NCBI GenBank assembly: GCA_964414295.1
Contig: CAYPVU010000046.1
Location: forward strand, 2,767 to 66,766
Length of the DNA stretch: 64,000 nt
From: an uncultured Candidatus Saccharibacteria bacterium
GTDB taxonomy: Bacteria > Patescibacteriota > Dojkabacteria > J137
Direction of reading: 5' to 3'
This document shows positions 2,002 through 59,997 of the stretch, piece by piece. Position 1 is the first letter of the stretch, and every line of letters starts with the position of its first letter. The position numbers were made by a program, and so were the translations under genes. The notes under the pieces are model-generated. The model saw nothing but the letters and a program-made list of their open reading frames with translations, ran no database searches and had not been told where the DNA came from.

Positions 2002-3087
2002 TTGTTTTTAAATAATGTAGAGAGGGTTAATAGCCCTCTCTATTATTATTACAATGTGGATAACAATATAAAATTTGATTTTAAAAAAGTTAGACCTGTA
2101 GATTTAAATTTAGATTATATTTATAAACGGCTAACACAAAAACAAATTTTAGAGCATTTTTTAGATGATACAATAGAATTTAAAAAGTTTATATTATCTC
2201 CTTTAAGGAAGGAAAATAATCCTTCTTTTAGTTTTAAATTAACTCCAAAGAATGATATAATTTGGACTGATTGGGGAACTGGTGAAACTGGAGATACAAT
2301 AAAATTTATTGAAAAATTATATGGTTGTAATCATCAAAAAGCTCTTGAAATTATATATGATAAACTTTTAAACGAGAAAAATGAACTTTATATTATTTCT
2401 GATAATAGTTTACGTTCTTCACAAGTTTCTGATAGTGAAAACTACAGAAGAACAACAAGAAGATCCTCTATAATTATTAAAGATCAGTTATTTACAGCTG
2501 CTGATAAATCTTATTGGAATAGTTATAATATAAGTTTACAAACTCTTGTTAAATATGATGTTTATTCTGTTAAATATTTATGGTATGAAGGAAATTTAAT
2601 AAAAACCTATAGTTCTAATAATCCTATATATGCTTATAAATTTACTTATGATGGTAATACTACTTATAAGATATATATGCCTTTTGAAGCCAAATCTAAA
2701 AAATGGTTAAGTAATACTACTAAAAGAGATATTCAAGGATACTCCCAATTACCTGAGAAAGATACTCTTTTAATTATTACTAAATCATTAAAGGATGTAA
2801 TGGTTTTAAATGAATTAGGATATAGTGCTATTGCTCCGCAAGCTGAATCTATAAATGTTGAAGAAAAGTTTATAGATAAGTTGTATAATAGGTTTGATAA
2901 TATAATAGTTTTTTATGATAATGATATAACTGGAATGTATCAAGCTAAAAAACTAAAAAAACAACATAATTTACCTAATATACAAATACCTAAAGAAATA
3001 TATAATGTTAAAGATATTAGTGATTTTTGTAAAAAATATGGAATTTATGAAACAAGAGAGTTCTTAAAAAAATTATTAACTATATGA
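2002..3087 (+). CDS. DnaG-like DNA primase (TOPRIM domain)
   Basis: TOPRIM signature: LIITKSLKDVMVLNELGYSAIAP ... NIIVFYDNDITGMYQAKKL (E..G...A plus DxD..G). The start codon is uncertain (TTG at 2002 or GTG at 2056). Confidence 0.5.
   Translation: MFLNNVERVNSPLYYYYNVDNNIKFDFKKVRPVDLNLDYIYKRLTQKQILEHFLDDTIEFKKFILSPLRKENNPSFSFKLTPKNDIIWTDWGTGETGDTIKFIEKLYGCNHQKALEIIYDKLLNEKNELYIISDNSLRSSQVSDSENYRRTTRRSSIIIKDQLFTAADKSYWNSYNISLQTLVKYDVYSVKYLWYEGNLIKTYSSNNPIYAYKFTYDGNTTYKIYMPFEAKSKKWLSNTTKRDIQGYSQLPEKDTLLIITKSLKDVMVLNELGYSAIAPQAESINVEEKFIDKLYNRFDNIIVFYDNDITGMYQAKKLKKQHNLPNIQIPKEIYNVKDISDFCKKYGIYETREFLKKLLTI
2019..2041 (+). terminator. hairpin AGAGAGGG-7nt-CCCTCTCT followed by a T/A-rich run
   Basis: Perfect 8-bp inverted repeat directly downstream of the stop at 1990. 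It overlaps the nominal TTG start of the next ORF, which probably starts later (GTG at 2056). Confidence 0.3.
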
Positions 3088-4031: not shown

Positions 4032-4974
4032 TAGTGAAGTAGATTATTTTAACGTAAAAGCAATAAGTAATAGTAGTTTAGGATGGTATCTTAAAAGTCC
4101 TAGATATTATCAATTGAAAATAAATCAAGAAATAAAAGAAGATGATCAAAGTTATTTTGATTTAGGTTCTGCTATTCATTGTTATATATTAGAAAACAAT
4201 ATATTTAATGATAAGTATATAATATCCTATGTTAAACCTATAGAGGGTTTAATGGGTAAATTTATATCTTATTATGCTAAATATGACAATTTAGAAGAGG
4301 CTTATCACTATTCTGAATTTAAATATCCTTTAGATAGAGTATTAGAGTCTTTTAAAGAAGATAAGAATCAAAATTATTATAATTTTATTAAACAATCTCA
4401 AAATAAAACTATTATTTCTAAAGATGATTTTAAAACAATTGAGAATATTTATAATGGAGTAGTAGTTCACAAAAAAGCTTCAAAATTATTAATATCTACT
4501 AGTTCTTTACCTGAGTTAGGTTTCTTAGATGAATCTGAAGTTTTTACAGAACATGAAATATACTTTCAGTATATGAATAGTTTTTGTAAAGCTAAGTTAG
4601 ATAGATTTATCGTAAATCATACTAAAAAAGAAATAATATTAGTAGACTTAAAAACTACATCTAAATCTGTTTATGATTTTAGTAAAGCTTTCCTATCATA
4701 TGCTTATGATAGACAATTGGCTTTTTATAATTTAGCCTTATTATCAATATACCCAGACTATAAGATAACAAGTTACATAGTAGCTTGTCAAACATCATTT
4801 TTAAATGAAGTTATTTGTTATAAGATATCTGAAGAACAAATTTCTAATGGTTTAAATAGAGTTAATGATATTATATCTAAAATAGAAAAACACAATCTTT
4901 TCTATTTTGATTATCCTTTAGAGTACTTTGAAGGTGATGGTAGTGTAGAACTGATAATAGATAGTAATGGTTAA
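3985..4974 (+). CDS. PD-(D/E)XK family nuclease (Cas4/RecB-like phage exonuclease)
   Basis: N-terminal ISNSSLGWYLKSPRYY, motif ILVDLKTTSK (D-x-K), and YDRQLAFY (QxxxY) in the C-terminal third. Confidence 0.5.
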   Translation: MQQIEQYQLQKKEKPNSEVDYFNVKAISNSSLGWYLKSPRYYQLKINQEIKEDDQSYFDLGSAIHCYILENNIFNDKYIISYVKPIEGLMGKFISYYAKYDNLEEAYHYSEFKYPLDRVLESFKEDKNQNYYNFIKQSQNKTIISKDDFKTIENIYNGVVVHKKASKLLISTSSLPELGFLDESEVFTEHEIYFQYMNSFCKAKLDRFIVNHTKKEIILVDLKTTSKSVYDFSKAFLSYAYDRQLAFYNLALLSIYPDYKITSYIVACQTSFLNEVICYKISEEQISNGLNRVNDIISKIEKHNLFYFDYPLEYFEGDGSVELIIDSNG

Positions 4975-6429: not shown

Positions 6430-7213
6430 CTATAATCCTGAATTACAGGATTTTGTAAATGTGTCTAATAACTTATTAGAAGTTCTATCTTCTAATGATA
6501 AGTATGATTACAATCTTTTAAAAGATGCTATTCAAGAAACATATTTTGAATTTATTAAAAATAAGATAGCTGGTATTAAATATAAGGGTGAGTTTTATTT
6601 TAGAAACTATCTTAAAACTATAATAAAGAAAAAATATGTTAAGTTTATATTTAGAGTTGGTAAAAGAAACACTTCAGAAGATATTAATAAATCTCAAATA
6701 AATATTTTTAGTAAATATCATGATTTATTAGAATCTGAAGATGTTAATTTTGAAGAAACATTAAGTGATTATTTACATTTATTAGATGAAAATAATCCTG
6801 AAAAAGTTTTAATATTTAAAGAGTTTTCATCTTTTTTAGATGAAGATAAAAATAAAATATTAAAAAAGCTTTATGAAGGATATGATACCAATGAAATTAA
6901 AAACCTTTATAATATATCTTCTAACAAAGTAACTCGTTCAGCTATTAGTAGACAAAGGCTAAAATTTAAATCTCATTTTAATTTAGACGTTAAAACAGTT
7001 AAGACTAATACTTTGAGTTACAAAAGAAAAGATGTACAAGGATCATTAAATAAATGGTCTAAGTTATCTGATAAAGATGTTATATTTATTAAGAAATTAA
7101 TTAAACTTGGTTTATCTAATACTTTAATCGTAGAAAAGATTAATCATAAAGTTAATAGAAGTACTATAAACAGAATTAGAACTAATAAACTTTGGACACA
7201 TATAATAGTATAA
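6371..7213 (+). CDS. hypothetical protein, possible transcription regulator/sigma-like
   Basis: The C-terminal third has an HTH-like segment (YNISSNKVTRSAISRQRLKFK). The start is probably the internal Met at about 6395. Confidence 0.3.
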   Translation: MNGKVLLKMVEEKQKQVENNYNPELQDFVNVSNNLLEVLSSNDKYDYNLLKDAIQETYFEFIKNKIAGIKYKGEFYFRNYLKTIIKKKYVKFIFRVGKRNTSEDINKSQINIFSKYHDLLESEDVNFEETLSDYLHLLDENNPEKVLIFKEFSSFLDEDKNKILKKLYEGYDTNEIKNLYNISSNKVTRSAISRQRLKFKSHFNLDVKTVKTNTLSYKRKDVQGSLNKWSKLSDKDVIFIKKLIKLGLSNTLIVEKINHKVNRSTINRIRTNKLWTHIIV

Positions 7214-25654: not shown

Positions 25655-25878
25655 AGTAAGATTTCTAGAAGCATCTAACGCTACTTGTTTCTTTAAAGCT
25701 GTAAATCCTTCTTGAGGATTATTAAACTTAGCCCAGTATCCTATAACTTTACCAGACTTATCATATCTAGGTTCACCTTTAGTAGCTCCAGGTTGATTAG
25801 CAAATACTAAGTTTCCAGGATTATTATGATATTTTGCTATAGACTGTCCTGACTCTTTCCTGGTTTGAGTAGGACTTT

Positions 25879-38078: not shown

Positions 38079-38117
38079 CAACAAATATTTGAAATATCCA
38101 AATTTTTTATAACATTT

Positions 38118-44439: not shown

Positions 44440-44474
44440 AAAAGGCTGGCTAGCTTTTAACCAACCAGCCTTTT
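44440..44474. terminator. strong hairpin AAAAGGCTGG-15nt-CCAGCCTTTT (bidirectional rho-independent terminator)
   Basis: Perfect 10-bp inverted repeat flanked by an A-run and a T-run, immediately downstream of the 404-aa gene. Confidence 0.55.
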
Positions 44475-53541: not shown

Positions 53542-56500
53542 TTACCATAGCTTATTTTTACGTTTTGTAAATAGTTTTCTATTCCAAAAATCAGAATTTA
53601 ATATATCATTTTTATCATTAGCTTCTTCTATTTTAACTTTCTTTACTTCTTGTATATGATACATACACATCATTAGACTCATAACTCTATCAAAGTTACC
53701 TTCTGGATTATAGGCAATTAACTCTTTTAATAGAGGAATACATCTTATTTTATGCATATTTTTAATACCATTAGATGAATCATAGTCTTCTAATAACCAC
53801 ATAATTATTAGATCCTCACCATGATCTTTTAATGATTTATTCATATGCATACCTTTACCTCTTTCTACTTTAGAGTTTTGTATAACATCTTTAATATAAG
53901 CAGGTTGATCTAAAAGTAAATAAGTTTCATTCTTACCTTCTAAATATTGGAATAGACCTTTTTTCTCATTTTCATATAAACATCTAGCATTATAAAAATG
54001 AAGTAATCTTCTTAAAATTTCATAATACTCATTTGCTGTTTTAGGTCTAGCTGTATATTCAGCAACTATTCTATTTGTTATTTTATCTATAATTATAGTA
54101 GAACCTAAAGAAGTTGTGCCAGATTGATCATGATCATAAGGGTCAGTACCTGCTAAATATCTACCAAAAGGTACATTTCCTTCCTCATCTTCATAAGGCA
54201 TCTCATATATAACCACACATCCTTCAGAATCTTGATCTTTAGTTAAAGGAAATTCTTTTAAAGGATTTAAATTAGGATTAGGCTTCCATTCATATTTAAG
54301 TGAATTAGGATTAAATACAATATCTCCTATATAATTAGTATTTTGTATTCTTTCTGATCCTTCTACTTGAGATAATATTATTTGTAAATCAGCTAAAGGA
54401 AATCTATTACCACTAGTTCTTAAAAATGCTTCAGCTGGAGATAAAGGTTGCTGAGTTATTTCTTTTTCATAAGCTCTCTTATTACCAGATTTTTTAACTA
54501 TTTCTCTTTTTAGTAGCAAAGATTCTTTTGCTTTAGCTCTATCAGAGTTACCATCTTTATCTACATAAGGAGGCTTATACCAAGAATCATCTACAAACCA
54601 TCCACAAGAACCTATTGCATTTTCATCCCATATATTTTCATAAGCTCTTAATCCATAAGAAGAAGGATTATAAAACATATCTGCAAAATCTTGTGTACCA
54701 CCTTCCATATCTCCACCTGTTCCATAAATAATAGGAATACCTATCATTATTTCTCCATCTGAGAATAATGGTTTAGATAACATATAAGATTCTATAAGTC
54801 CAGTCCACTTTCCTGCTTCTTCAAATAACATTACAGAAGCAGATTTACCAATTGATTTAAAAGGGTTATCTTTAAAACTCATAGTCATTATTTCAGACTT
54901 GAATCCAGATTCTACTTCTATACCATTTATTTTTTCTTTAAATCCTGATTTAATATATTGTCTAGTATCTATTAACTTTCTTTTAGCCCAATCAGTATTA
55001 GTGTTAATAAAGTTAATCATGTCTAAAGCCATATTCATTGTAGTTTGTGAATACTCCGCTAAAAAAGCTGCTATAATAGAAAATGAATTTCTATACCAAT
55101 TATATTCATAAACCGTATTAAATGCTCCTTTATATGAGTTATGAGTAACTATATAATCTCTAGTTATATATAAATGATTTGGGTTTTCTACTAAAATGCA
55201 AGAACTTTCTTCTTGATAATCTAATTTTTTAACAGAAGTAATAGCTACTTTATTATGATTATATTTTCTTTTTTTAATATTTTTATTTTTTCTATCTAGT
55301 TTAAATATTTCATAATCTGTTATTATATTAACTACCCAAGAATCTCTAACAATAGATTGCTTATTATTTGGAAAATTCATTAGTTTTCTACCATTACTAC
55401 TTTTAGATTTAGTAGCTCTTAATCCAAGACTTCTACAAATATCAACTACATCATTAGCTAATGTTTCAGAAGAAGAAGTAAATCTACATGTTCCATTTGG
55501 ACTACTAGTACCATCAGTATCCATTAATCCTTTTAATAACTCTAATCTTGTATCATAAGAACCTTTCTTATAAATTTCAGGAATAAACTTATCATAAGAT
55601 TTTACATTTAATTTTAAATTTTGTATAAATCTTAATAAATTATTAGGAGTACCAGGACCACCATCTTTTACAGTAATACTATATTTAAAAGGAGTGGTTG
55701 TTTTATTAACATTGTATCTAGATTTTAATATATCTTTTACAATATTAACTAGTTGTTCATCGTTTGATGAAAACTCTAAACTTGATTTTGTTAGACTTCC
55801 ATCTCCTATTAAAACACCTAGTAAATAAGGATCTATTGGTAAAGGTAAATCATAGAAATTTAAAGGTTTACAATTTTCTATAAAGTAAGCATAGTAACAT
55901 TTATTACCTTTATTTCTTTTTAATTTCTTATCTAAAAAGAATTTAGTATTTACTATTCTTTTTTTACCTCTTTGATCAATAATTTCCCAAAGATGTTCTA
56001 ATCCGCATTTTACTTTTCTACCATCTCTTAATTCTAACTCATATACATCCTTCTTTCCTTGAGGATATACTTCAAGGATTCTTGTAGGATAACCGTCAGG
56101 ATTCATTACTAAATCATTAGGTTTTAATGTACCCATTGGTTTGAATCCAAATGGAGTTAAAACAAGTTCACTATTAGGTTGTTCAAATCCTTTTCTCCTT
56201 GATTTAGCTACTATTATACCTTCTTTATTTAATTTAGCTTTCTCTAATTCATGATAATAATAGTAATCCATATCTAGAAAACGAGGAAATCCTTCGTACT
56301 TTCTAGCTTTTTTACCTTCTCCTTCAGTTATTTTAATTCTACCAAAGTTAAGATAAGCATAATGTTCTCCAGTTATTCTAATACCACCTACAGTATAACC
56401 TTCTCTACATCTTCTATCTTGTTCATCCCAATACTCTTGATATTCATATGTTCCTTCAGGAGCATCACAATAAGTATTATATTTAACAAACCTTTTAGCT

Positions 56501-56583
56501 TCTTCACAAAAATAATCAGTATTTATGAAAGTAGTAGGGTTTGTTAAATAAGGTATATCATGTATAAGTATATCGTTACTCAT
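53542..56583 (-). CDS. terL: terminase large subunit interrupted by an intein (1013-aa precursor)
   Basis: Candidate P-loop remnant AKSRRKGF sits at the N-extein/intein junction. Nuclease-domain motif LAGTDPYDHDQSGTTSLGSTIIIDK (RuvC-like G.DP....D). Gene order TerL-portal. Confidence 0.65.
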   Translation of the reverse strand: MSNDILIHDIPYLTNPTTFINTDYFCEEAKRFVKYNTYCDAPEGTYEYQEYWDEQDRRCREGYTVGGIRITGEHYAYLNFGRIKITEGEGKKARKYEGFPRFLDMDYYYYHELEKAKLNKEGIIVAKSRRKGFEQPNSELVLTPFGFKPMGTLKPNDLVMNPDGYPTRILEVYPQGKKDVYELELRDGRKVKCGLEHLWEIIDQRGKKRIVNTKFFLDKKLKRNKGNKCYYAYFIENCKPLNFYDLPLPIDPYLLGVLIGDGSLTKSSLEFSSNDEQLVNIVKDILKSRYNVNKTTTPFKYSITVKDGGPGTPNNLLRFIQNLKLNVKSYDKFIPEIYKKGSYDTRLELLKGLMDTDGTSSPNGTCRFTSSSETLANDVVDICRSLGLRATKSKSSNGRKLMNFPNNKQSIVRDSWVVNIITDYEIFKLDRKNKNIKKRKYNHNKVAITSVKKLDYQEESSCILVENPNHLYITRDYIVTHNSYKGAFNTVYEYNWYRNSFSIIAAFLAEYSQTTMNMALDMINFINTNTDWAKRKLIDTRQYIKSGFKEKINGIEVESGFKSEIMTMSFKDNPFKSIGKSASVMLFEEAGKWTGLIESYMLSKPLFSDGEIMIGIPIIYGTGGDMEGGTQDFADMFYNPSSYGLRAYENIWDENAIGSCGWFVDDSWYKPPYVDKDGNSDRAKAKESLLLKREIVKKSGNKRAYEKEITQQPLSPAEAFLRTSGNRFPLADLQIILSQVEGSERIQNTNYIGDIVFNPNSLKYEWKPNPNLNPLKEFPLTKDQDSEGCVVIYEMPYEDEEGNVPFGRYLAGTDPYDHDQSGTTSLGSTIIIDKITNRIVAEYTARPKTANEYYEILRRLLHFYNARCLYENEKKGLFQYLEGKNETYLLLDQPAYIKDVIQNSKVERGKGMHMNKSLKDHGEDLIIMWLLEDYDSSNGIKNMHKIRCIPLLKELIAYNPEGNFDRVMSLMMCMYHIQEVKKVKIEEANDKNDILNSDFWNRKLFTKRKNKLW
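55138..56172 (-). mobile_element. intein with LAGLIDADG homing endonuclease domain inside terL (about 345 aa)
   Basis: Two LAGLIDADG blocks (YLLGVLIGDGSL and LLKGLMDTDGTS). C-terminal splice motif ...YIVTHN|SYKG (His-Asn followed by Ser). The N-terminal junction is near ...EQPN|SELVLTPFG. Confidence 0.6.
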
Positions 56584-57763: not shown

Positions 57764-57953
57764 GTTCTATATCTCTAAGTTTCTTTCTATTTTTCTTAAC
57801 TCCAAATATACCTAAATGTATTGCTCTAAAAGATTCATATTTTCCAGATTCCATAGCAAGCTTAATCATCTTATATTGAGAGTTAATAACTCTTTCTACA
57901 TCACTCTTAGGAATATTTAATCTAAGAGATACTTCTCTAATCACTTTATCCAT
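57747..57953 (-). CDS. HU/IHF-like small DNA-binding protein (tentative)
   Basis: 68 aa; the layout DKVIREVSLRLNIPKSDVERVINSQYKMIKLAMESGKYESFRAIHLGIFGVKKNRKK resembles the HU helix-helix-beta-arm pattern. Confidence 0.3.
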   Translation of the reverse strand: MDKVIREVSLRLNIPKSDVERVINSQYKMIKLAMESGKYESFRAIHLGIFGVKKNRKKLRDIELGRDK

Positions 57954-58315
57954 TATTTCTCAAGTTTAAGTTTATAAGTAATATTTAAAACATTATCCTT
58001 TTCATCAGGATACTTTAAAAGATGTTTAACTATTTTATTATCATTAGTTAATATTCTTTTACTTCTAAGACTAGTAAGATGATTATTAAAAGAAGGTTCA
58101 CTCATTTTAATAGACATATACATTGCTTTTCTTGCACTAGCAGAAAAGATAAGATTAAATAACTTATCTTCATCTAGGTGTCTATTTGCATAACATAGAG
58201 TAAGAATAGTACTTAGTACTTCTACTTCTCTTTTCTTTAAATTTAAAATAGGATTTAAAGCATTTACATATGCTTTATAAAACTTTTTAATATCTACATT
58301 AACAGGTATTATCAT
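57953..58315 (-). CDS. hypothetical protein (first gene of the leftward late operon)
   Basis: 120-aa ORF whose start abuts the ORF-free island. Confidence 0.3.
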   Translation of the reverse strand: MIIPVNVDIKKFYKAYVNALNPILNLKKREVEVLSTILTLCYANRHLDEDKLFNLIFSASARKAMYMSIKMSEPSFNNHLTSLRSKRILTNDNKIVKHLLKYPDEKDNVLNITYKLKLEK

Positions 58316-58860
58316 ATCTAATCTACACTATTATAATCTACTTCTCTTCAGTTAATACCTAAAAAAGGGTAATAATCTTACGGGACTACTACCCTTAGTG
58401 TTAGTTTCATTTTAAACTGTAGTATACTAAATACTTTTGTTTATAAGAGGATTTACTAACCTAGTATCTTAATATATATTTTAGAGCATAGCATTGGCTG
58501 ACTCCATTTTAAAGTAACTAATCCTACCTATCTCTACTTCTAACTATCTAATTACTTCCCATAACTACATAGCAAAGTTTACCCCTAGTTAAGGATCTTA
58601 CTTAATACTTTTGGATTTCCTTAGTTTAATTTGCGTCTGGCTTTCGCTGTACCTACTGGGGTAGTTTTACCTACTATTGTTTCCCCACTATTAAACTTTG
58701 TTCATCCAAGGATCTATCTCTCTATTTGAGAGGAGTACTTATCTCCTTTGTTAGACCTCTAACCTAACCCTTGCTAAAGATTAGTCCCCTTAAAGGTGAA
58801 TAACAATGCAAAGATAAAACAAATATCTGACATTTCCAAATAATTTAGCAATTATTTTTA
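58316..58860. other. GC-richer ~550-bp ORF-free island, pyrimidine-rich on + strand, at the left edge of the gap between the leftward late operon and the rightward + genes (the rest of the gap, 58861..59020, is AT-rich); candidate structured ncRNA or origin
   Basis: No ORF >=60 aa in any frame. Composition is clearly less AT-rich than the flanks. Local hairpins are present, e.g. GGGTA-18nt-TACCC and GGGG/CCCC pairs; TACCTACT occurs twice. Confidence 0.35.
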
Positions 58861-59020
58861 TAAGTTTTTTATAACTATCTGAAAATCAATAAAAAATTTT
58901 TTTATAAAATTTTAAAAATGTAAGTATAAATTTAAACGAGGACCACCCCATTTCCTAACCCCCTCTCAGGCTTGGGCAGGGAAAATCCCTCGCCACTAAT
59001 AACCTAAAAACCATTTTTTT

Positions 59021-59311
59021 ATGAACAAGCAACAATTTATTGCTGCATTAAACGCAGCAGGCGTAGAATTAAAGCAGAGAGTATTTGAAGATACTGTTAT
59101 TGCTAAAACTATTAATTTATTAACTCTTGGATTTGTTAGAAGAGTAAGTAGTACTGGTAAAGCGCAGTACATTCTAACAGAAGATAATAAGGAGTTAATA
59201 ATTAATGTTACTCAGTTCAGAGATAATGATACTTACAAAATCATTAAAAGAACTGCTACAATAGAATACAAATCCATGAAACCAGGACAGTATTTTATTA
59301 TAGGATTATAA
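59021..59311 (+). CDS. hypothetical protein
   Basis: 96-aa ORF preceded by a GC-rich leader and followed by a clean terminator. Confidence 0.35.
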   Translation: MNKQQFIAALNAAGVELKQRVFEDTVIAKTINLLTLGFVRRVSSTGKAQYILTEDNKELIINVTQFRDNDTYKIIKRTATIEYKSMKPGQYFIIGL

Positions 59312-59316
59312 AGATT

Positions 59317-59340
59317 AGAGCCCTAACGGGCTCTTTTCTT
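59317..59340 (+). terminator. rho-independent terminator AGAGCCC-TAAC-GGGCTCT + TTTCTTT
   Basis: Perfect 7-bp GC-rich stem with a tetraloop and a T-run, 6 nt after the stop. Confidence 0.6.
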
Positions 59341-59510
59341 TCGTCTATTTAAGTTATTTAGATATTTATTTAATACATCTATTTAATTATTTAGATATGT
59401 ATTTAATTGAGTATTAAAGACTTAGGATTTAGATTTAATATTTAGATTTAGGTCTTTATACACCTAACCAAACAAATAACCATATTTACAATTATCTATA
59501 TTTACAATAC
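59341..59510. repeat. iteron-like direct repeats (TTATTTAGATAT x2, ATTTAGATTTA x2, TATTTAAT x3, ATATTTACAAT x2)
   Basis: Seen directly: 59355-59366 and 59388-59399; 59427-59437 and 59440-59450; 59483-59493 and 59498-59509. Confidence 0.45.
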
Positions 59511-59559
59511 TAATGTAAATTATATAGCTTATATTATTATGTTAACTATAATTAATGGT

Positions 59560-59960
59560 TGTCTTACTTATATTGAGTGGACAACTAATCCTAATGGCTA
59601 ATTAGGATTGCTATAGGTTTATACTTGTACCTGGCAGAAATAAAAACAAGTATTTAATTTAATGCACCACAACTCACTTCCCAAGGGTGAGCAGTTGTAA
59701 TATTCATCTCGGCTCCTATAAATAATAAGTTATTAGAGATGATTACTGTGCACAAGTAGAAGACCTAAATCAGATAGTCCTCGAAGATTATCATGAAGGA
59801 GTGGCTCTATTACAACTGAGTGCAGAGAGAATACTCTCATCCAAACAGGTATATTACCAATCTATAAGAAGCAGGTGTAACAGTAAGGTTACTGTCTTAT
59901 AAGGAGATATATATCAAGGTTTGCAACCTTGTGAGAGTCAAATTATCTTTAATATTAACT
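59560..59960. other. hairpin-dense non-coding stretch (candidate structured RNA / leader)
   Basis: Several perfect stems within 400 nt: GTTGTC-16nt-GACAAC, CCTAAT-GGCTA-ATTAGG, CAACTCAC...GTGAGcAGTTG, GAGAG-AATA-CTCTC, CAGTAA-GG-TTACTG, CAAGGTT-TGCA-AACCTTG. No ORF. Confidence 0.3.
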
Positions 59961-59997
59961 TAACAACAACAGACATGTTGTAAAATATGTAAAAAAT

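Follow-up and report, generated by a model that had tools for sequence, protein, structure and literature searches.

What does a phage genome that is coding almost from end to end keep in a long stretch of DNA without any gene, placed at the head of its packaging and structural genes? The stretch in question covers positions 58316-58860 of the window, by which we mean the whole 64,000-nucleotide (nt) piece of DNA that was analysed; it is an AT-rich phage genome of the crAss-like kind, with a GC content of 27% (0.273), of which open reading frames (ORFs) leave only 7% uncovered. On the minus strand, a packaging/structural block of about 50 kb runs from 58315 down to about 8500, with PHROG profiles for the terminase large subunit, the portal and the major head protein and with ORFs of 4074 and 1539 amino acids (aa), and on the plus strand a second block begins at 59021. 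The gap between these divergent blocks, 58316-59020 (705 nt), is the largest ORF-free gap in the window, and our stretch occupies its left edge, between ORF 57953..58315 (-) and ORF 59021..59311 (+), exactly where an earlier note made from the sequence alone had placed it. In our judgement, the stretch is very probably a non-coding RNA unit on the minus strand, whose folded promoter-proximal RNA and terminator stand right where transcription would enter the terminase, portal and capsid genes. Few known phages are as abundant as the crAss-like ones, and the way in which they activate their very long structural operon is poorly understood; as the same spot holds other structured RNAs or RNA-like elements in related phages, this position offers a concrete and testable control point for late expression.

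A non-coding stretch between a promoter and a terminator

The earlier note had described the stretch as free of ORFs, and indeed no ORF of at least 60 aa is present in 58316-58860 on either strand, the longest open run in any of the six frames being 45 codons. Every frame holds at least two types of stop codon, so reassigning one stop codon rescues no gene; recoding was rejected, given that no frame opens with a single stop recoded. A pseudogene or decayed gene was likewise rejected. Comparing the stretch by tblastx, in all frames and on both strands, with all the related loci, which were gathered by terminase-based and neighbour-protein searches, returned only the promoter DNA and no translated similarity beyond it, and the homologous stretch of a diverged relative, the contig L008, is also ORF-free, with no sense ORF longer than 33 aa. 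A normal gene at this spot in related phages, which the note had named as the sign of a pseudogene, was thus not found.

In composition, the stretch is richer in GC than its surroundings, as had been noticed, with the qualification that the difference is modest: a value of 0.316 vs. 0.273 for the window corresponds to the 88th percentile of 545-nt windows, and the inner part, 58500-58799, reaches 0.363 (97th percentile). The plus strand is pyrimidine-rich (57.6%), but to call this a strong asymmetry was an overstatement, as it stands only at the 75th percentile, and an equal bias is found in neighbouring minus-strand genes. The GGG/CCC-based hairpins are real, in the form of UGGGG/CCCCA in the core described below and GGGUA.../...UACCC in the terminator, and the reported lack of a tRNA agrees with ARAGORN, which finds neither a tRNA nor a transfer-messenger RNA in the whole window. 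Only the minus strand folds better than its shuffled versions, and weakly so (z = -1.55, vs. -0.07 for the plus strand).

Because of the order of the signals from 58840 to 58315, the minus strand reads as a promoter, a non-coding RNA of about 440 nt, a terminator and the operon. The elements TTTG at -33 and TAnnTTTG at -7 form the consensus for Bacteroidota primary sigma factors, and the segment 58840-58809 (-), TTTGGAAATGTCAGATATTTGTTTTATCTTTG, with its TTTG at -33 and TATCTTTG at -7, fits this type of promoter for the host RNA polymerase, with a transcription start predicted near 58803. The motif TTTG-N17-22-TAnnTTTG occurs 10 times in the window vs. 4.0 times in shuffled sequences. An extended form, TTTGGA..TCA..TATTTGTT.TAT.TTTG, is also found in intergenic DNA at 38102-38071, 30693-30662, 25456-25395 and ~50435, all on the minus strand and upstream of minus-strand genes, and these copies suggest a set of internal middle/late promoters within the structural block. 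The promoters at 38102, 30693 and 25456 are 15-80 nt away from their genes, while the one at 58840-58809 is separated by 494 nt from the next start codon. In related loci, the motif is kept upstream of the homologous operon, and across the wider clade the distance from the promoter to the gene of a 120-aa protein (the first gene of the block in the window) ranges from 35 to 789 nt, the promoter itself being conserved. In the Cellulophaga phage phi14:2, a crAss-like phage of Flavobacteriia, we found a near-identical motif, TTTGGATATCTCAGAATTAAGTATTATCTTTG, directly upstream of g110, which is among four genes listed as preceded by a middle promoter; this promoter class was mapped by primer extension and assigned to the host RNA polymerase, by which both the middle and the late genes are transcribed (10.1101/2020.03.07.982082).

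At the other end of the unit, an intrinsic terminator at 58396-58361 (-) is made of a 13-pair stem, AAGGGUAGUAGUC-CCGUAA-GAUUAUUACCCUU, followed by a U run, and ends 45 nt before the first gene of the packaging/structural block. The terminator scan returned four terminator-like sites in 1.5 kb vs. 0.4 expected, and in the window from 24 to 64 kb there are only two clear minus-strand terminators, this one and another at 44466..44444. L008 keeps the terminator with an altered stem, GGUAAUC-CCGUAA-GAUUACC, followed by UUUUCUU. From these signals we infer a non-coding transcript of about 440 nt, from promoter to terminator, at 58361..58803 (-).

The conserved three-helix core and its relatives

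Searches with the 120-aa protein and a 96-aa neighbour protein gave only two near-identical Logan contigs (L033, with 99.85% DNA identity, and L007, with a 98% identical 120-aa protein) and a single diverged one, L008. In the latter, the 120-aa protein is 79% identical, and the promoter, the terminator and the leader after the terminator are retained, while the RNA body is strongly diverged and still ORF-free, with a fold z of -3.04; its global alignment with the window gives z = 7.7. MAFFT and RNAalifold applied to this pair gave an unreliable alignment in which the terminator alone was recovered. Read by eye, the two sequences share three nested helices around the loop AGGUAAA, followed by GUAGG, and a pattern search built on the invariant letters of this core found four further distinct homologues in IMG/VR (L041/L043, L042, L045/L046 and L066), so that six members, including the window and L008, are available.

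In the window, the core comprises 75 nt, 58623..58697 (-), with three helices and an invariant loop and junction. The outer helix H1 pairs AGUUUAAU (58697-58690) with AUUAAACU (58630-58623), H2 pairs UGGGG (58687-58683) with CCCCA (58661-58657), and H3 pairs UAGU (58676-58673) with ACUA (58665-58662), closing the invariant loop AGGUAAA (58672-58666). The junction consists of GUAGGUACA (58656-58648), a GNRA hairpin, GCGAAAGC (58647-58640), and CAGACGCAA (58639-58631), and GUAGG after the AGGUAAA loop is invariant as well. The GNRA-capped hairpin is present in three members, including the window, and missing from the three others, and it is for this reason that MAFFT misaligns the 3' strand of H1 across the six and that pairs were counted on a hand alignment.

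In this alignment, all 87 helix cells (87/87) are standard pairs, and 15 of the 17 helix positions show at least two pair types among the six sequences. The search pattern fixed the two inner pairs of H3 and did not include H1, on either strand, or the 5' strands of H2. Given that the helix registers had been set by hand, two controls were added. A fixed three-helix descriptor was satisfied by 6/6 members and by 0/55 of the other pattern hits, and when the flanks of the members were shuffled it was satisfied in only 0.1-2.8% of trials. From these sequence comparisons, we take the core to be under selection, with its helices maintained by compensatory changes. Pattern matches in bacterial and archaeal genomes were set aside as chance, all of them lying in coding sequence and several in GVGKT-type P-loop motifs. 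The search pattern also occurs at the end of an unrelated viral contig (L108, 5123-5287), within a tandem array of 20-nt units of GGTAGGTAAAACTTACCAAC and its variants.

The placement of the core is constant. In 6/6 members, a promoter of the type described above precedes it by 45-140 nt (in the window, the predicted start is about 105 nt away), its surroundings are AT-rich and ORF-free, and it is upstream of, and co-oriented with, a module of the 120-aa protein, a 168-aa protein, the terminase and the portal; among the loci that reach the terminase, that of L045/L046 and L066 is only 30-37% identical to the terminase of the window. What comes directly after the RNA varies: the 120-aa gene in some members, small ORFs or the gene of a membrane protein in others. 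In 5/6 members, the RNA is followed by a terminator-like hairpin (L041 has no U-rich terminator), and no second promoter is found after the hairpin in four of these five (the window, L008, L042 and L066), nor after the RNA in L041. The start codon in L066 comes immediately after the U run, which makes the RNA a 5' leader there. Only about 25-50 nt separate the hairpin from the core in L066 and L042, compared with a spacing of 220-230 nt in the window and L008, and the whole RNA measures 150-440 nt among members through the gain of peripheral domains.

A further feature, read by eye from the alignment and the folds, is a small 5' hairpin, UCUC-AAAUA-GAGA, at 58719..58731 (-), which we regard as a tentative conserved element: the AAAUA loop recurs on other stems in L041 (UCUAU/AUAGA) and L046 (UUUUU/GAAAA), and was not seen in the alignments of L008, L042 and L066. 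Beyond the terminator, a short leader at 58316..58344 (-), GAAGTAGATTATAAT-N5-AGATTAGAT followed by the ATG, contains two copies of TAGATTA and is nearly identical in L008 despite the diverged RNA body; a search of viral contigs with its pattern gave no match. The first gene after it, 57953..58315 (-), encodes the conserved 120-aa protein, with the motif MSEPSFNNHLxQLRxK, and opens the block that continues through the terminase, portal and capsid genes. The protein is probably a small winged-helix DNA binder, to judge from weak matches to HTH_5, HTH_24 and NolR.

No known RNA family accounts for the element. Rfam 15 gave nothing at the gathering threshold in the whole window, nor in the relatives L002, L003, L005 and L006; at E values up to 10, the region 58100-59800 produced only two chance-level matches, CRISPR-DR45 (19.5 bits) and algC (17.1 bits), and L008 produced none at E values up to 1. 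In the phage records of INPHARED, there was neither a blastn match to the region nor a tblastn match to a neighbouring protein. The core therefore represents a structured RNA family that fits no Rfam family, although it may already sit among the 8,495 unnamed candidates from IMG/VR (PMC10690425). We regard the element, on the sequence evidence, as a new family of a known kind, namely a phage-encoded structured leader or non-coding RNA. The proposal of the earlier note that a structured non-coding RNA is read with the late operon gains support from the minus-strand promoter and terminator, from the covarying core in six contigs and from the fold z. The ROOL and GOLLD RNAs are likewise phage-borne, structured, non-coding and several hundred nt long; they differ in that the core of the window is far smaller, has no tRNA beside it and gives no Rfam match at threshold.

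The same spot is occupied by other RNA-like elements in other phages of the clade, closer relatives of the window included, and we grouped these ORF-free, GC-richer elements as types A to D, with that of the window as type A. Type C, a structured RNA of about 250 nt with several covarying helices, is found in about a dozen contigs (L009, at 4690-4940, L016-L019, L021-L024, L031, L034 and L036-L038); it follows the same type of promoter ahead of the 120-aa gene, is ORF-free, contains the invariant blocks UGUUGGAnCAGG and ACAGCAG and closes with a terminator-like hairpin, after which the loci inspected have a second promoter before the downstream genes. It thus resembles the RNA of the window in its spot relative to the 120-aa gene, its promoter type, its lack of ORFs, its terminal hairpin and its covarying helices, but is unrelated to it in sequence and fold. 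With R1, a type C covariance model based on 11 sequences, no match was obtained in 58316-58860, the best one in the window (13.9 bits, E = 0.55) being inside the terminase gene. Rfam lacks at least two of these RNA families, types A and C. That types A to D form one family was considered and rejected: alignment z values between types are near zero, R1 misses the window, and single-sequence nhmmer finds no matches across types, a method that fails to link even the window and L008. The core, AGGUAAA...GUAGG, was not found in types B, C and D or in phi14:2.

Types B and D, as well as two features of related contigs, deserve a brief description. Type B, at 1790-2158 of L003 and 4692-5068 of L005, is ORF-free, with GGGACAGUAAACC...GAGGAGCCC...AAGCUAGGAAGAGAUUG common to both, and at 1835-1904 of L003, before type B, there is a tRNA-like sequence with an abnormal anticodon loop (40.5 bits with the Rfam tRNA model; unassignable anticodon according to ARAGORN). 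Type D, at 4160-4540 of L006, is GC-rich and ORF-free, has its own promoter upstream of the 120-aa gene and contains GCGAAAG...GUAGG...CAGACG, loosely resembling the core junction of the window. In the early region of L009, positions 2797-2862 (-) match the RAGATH-1 hammerhead ribozyme near threshold (52.7 bits vs. a gathering threshold of 56.3; E = 4.5e-6).

A possible leader for the late operon and its alternatives

What, then, would such an RNA do? The explanation we favour, with some reserve, is that it acts in cis as an operon leader governing read-through of the terminator. In this mechanism, the host RNA polymerase would start at the middle/late-type phage promoter at 58840-58809 and transcribe about 440 nt, which would fold around the 75-nt three-helix core (58697-58623), and the polymerase would then meet the strong intrinsic terminator at 58396-58361, 45 nt before the first gene. 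The core would either render the polymerase resistant to the terminator, as the put RNA of phage HK022 does, or set the fraction of polymerases that pass it; most transcripts would end as a free RNA of 440 nt, and a controlled fraction would continue into the late genes. This effect of the core on termination is what we infer from the layout of the locus. No TTTG..TAnnTTTG motif is found between the terminator at 58396-58361 and the ATG at 58315, and the next minus-strand host-type promoter after 58840-58809 is at ~50435; as the terminase and portal genes have no other host-type promoter between them and the terminator, these genes and that of the 120-aa protein would depend on read-through. 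In all six members, a polymerase starting at the host-type promoter before the packaging/structural module would transcribe this RNA first, and the variable gene directly downstream fits an operon-entry element better than a gene-specific sensor.

Two phage systems offer close parallels. In the lambdoid phage HK022, the put RNA, composed of two stem-loops, acts in cis to make RNA polymerase terminator-resistant and needs no particular downstream gene. Both put and the RNA of the window are short folded phage RNAs found soon after a host-polymerase promoter and before terminators and a long operon, and the put-like layout is present in the window, with a promoter-proximal core in cis, the terminators 58396-58361 and 44466-44444 downstream, and no host-type promoter from 58361 to ~50435. 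In contrast, there is no resemblance in sequence or fold, two stem-loops in put standing against a three-helix junction here, the host polymerase of the window is of the Bacteroidota type, the effect on termination is here only predicted, and, unlike put, one member of the family has a second promoter after the RNA. In phage lambda, the late genes depend on read-through at a gate that consists of the promoter pR', the 6S RNA, the terminator tR' and the antiterminator Q. The order of a promoter, a short non-coding transcript and a terminator directly before the packaging/structural operon is the same as in the window, whereas the 6S RNA has no conserved folded core and the lambda gate is opened by Q, which loads from a DNA site within the promoter; the window yielded no Q-like protein.

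A bolder version of the operon leader, in which the core, as an RNA of a new class, attaches co-transcriptionally to the host polymerase of Bacteroidota and confers terminator resistance without a protein cofactor, we consider unlikely. If it were true, a polymerase-binding core would license a single promoter for an operon of about 50 kb with the packaging, capsid, tail and virion-polymerase genes, the unrelated RNAs of types B, C and D would be independent solutions to the same task, and an RNA that modifies the polymerase would be the first such element for Bacteroidota.

Several observations weigh against a leader acting in cis. In L045/L046, a second promoter stands between the terminator of the RNA and the 120-aa gene, and the type C RNA always has its own promoter and terminator-like hairpin, with the second promoter downstream in the inspected loci; both arrangements resemble RNA genes in their own right. 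Core and terminator may be as close as about 25 nt or as far apart as about 230 nt, a length that varies between 150 and 440 nt is seen more typically in free-standing RNAs, and L041, as said above, has no U-rich terminator. Moreover, no conserved alternative pairing between core and terminator, that is, no switching helix, was found among the members, no similarity to put RNA or to any Rfam family was detected, and only six sequences are known for a fold whose registers were set by hand.

Some of these observations speak for a free-standing phage RNA that acts in trans, which we hold to be a real possibility and nearly as likely as the cis-acting leader. The RNA would then be the bulk product of a strong middle/late promoter, released at the terminator, and would, for example, sequester a protein through its single-stranded AGGUAAA and GUAGG segments, mislead a defence system as a decoy, or be a cofactor in structure or packaging, the read-through downstream being incidental. 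The separate promoter of L045/L046, the self-contained promoter-RNA-terminator unit of type C at the equivalent position, the variable length around a conserved core and the resemblance of the conserved single-stranded motifs to recognition sites are all in its favour, and an RNA acting in this way would be new among phage RNAs, with a recognition surface that is conserved and defined. There is also a precedent in phi14:2, which makes abundant intergenic long non-coding RNAs from ORF-free stretches transcribed above most genes; these belong to the early region, are read rightward and are present from the earliest time point (10.1101/2020.03.07.982082). Like them, the predicted RNA of the window comes from a crAss-like phage of Flavobacteriia and is long, ORF-free and intergenic, and it differs in following a middle-type promoter at the head of a leftward block; no similarity between the two was found by nhmmer or motif search. 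Against an action in trans stand the constant co-orientation of the RNA directly upstream of the same operon, the lack of a promoter after it in 5/6 members, the way in which it runs straight into the next ORF in L066 and L041, and the fact that no partner or target could be identified.

A conditional sensor, either riboswitch-like or an attenuator bound by a protein, which would time the entry into the late genes through the terminator, appears quite improbable. The core would recognise a small molecule or else a protein, for which the winged-helix protein encoded downstream is a possible candidate. The layout is in its favour, as a terminator comes after a compact junction in which the invariant nucleotides are unpaired, at about 25-50 nt in L066 and L042, and in L066, and only there, the minimum-energy fold puts one strand of H2 into an alternative pairing beside the U run. 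Weighing against this picture are the 220-230 nt between core and terminator in the window and L008, the changing downstream genes, the failure to find a conserved switching helix, the lack of the GNRA arm in three members, and the lack of a match to any known riboswitch family.

Finally, a DNA-level element (the replication origin or packaging site that the earlier note had entertained) or a decayed gene without RNA function is very improbable, since its attractions, namely a site at the junction of divergent blocks, a cumulative GC-skew minimum near 58900-59100 and an adjoining AT-rich spacer at 58860-58930 that falls outside 58316-58860, are outweighed by the lack of iteron-like or tandem repeat families in 58300-59020 (only short two-copy repeats are present), by a skew minimum that coincides with the change of coding strand and as a gene-orientation switch says nothing alone about an origin, by compensatory helix changes that point to RNA pairing, by a promoter and a terminator oriented around the stretch, by the lack of tblastx coding homology and the ORF-free homologues in diverged phages, and by more origin-like repeats elsewhere, at 59349-59407.

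Other elements near the gap and in the window

Those repeats belong to the second largest ORF-free gap in the window, 59312-59997 (686 nt), which lies directly after the first early gene and its terminator (59317-59334). At 59349-59407, there are two 26-nt direct repeats with a spacing of 33 nt, followed by other AT-rich repeats, and distal to them GC-richer hairpins are found around 59640-59960. This gap could be an origin, or could encode an early long non-coding RNA as in phi14:2. The near-identical contig L033 stops at ~59814.

A conserved element rich in C, GACCACCCCAUUUCCUAACCCCCUC..., occupies 58935-59010 (+), between the minus-strand promoter and the plus-strand block, whose first (early) gene begins shortly after it. 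It has counterparts in L003 (1570-1660), L006 (~4050-4110), L008 (~240-330), L041 (~540-640), and L046 and L040 (~7000-7060), and phi14:2 has a looser C-rich stretch at the equivalent position. The element could be an early promoter or leader for the virion RNA polymerase; the study of phi14:2 reported no common motif for the early promoters of that enzyme (10.1101/2020.03.07.982082).

Two further features concern the minus-strand block. The segment 25376-25878 (-) contains 210 nt of GC-richer sequence, 25655-25864, absent from the program-made ORF list, which reads open on the minus strand downstream of a 799-aa gene; this stretch may represent a gene that starts in an unusual way, or else a frameshifted extension. 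The terminase large subunit, 53542-56583 (-), has 1013 aa compared with 660-711 aa in relatives, and LAGLIDADG homing-endonuclease domains are found at residues ~250-400 (Pfam LAGLIDADG_3, E = 8.6e-12), the insertion being most likely an intein within the ATPase domain.

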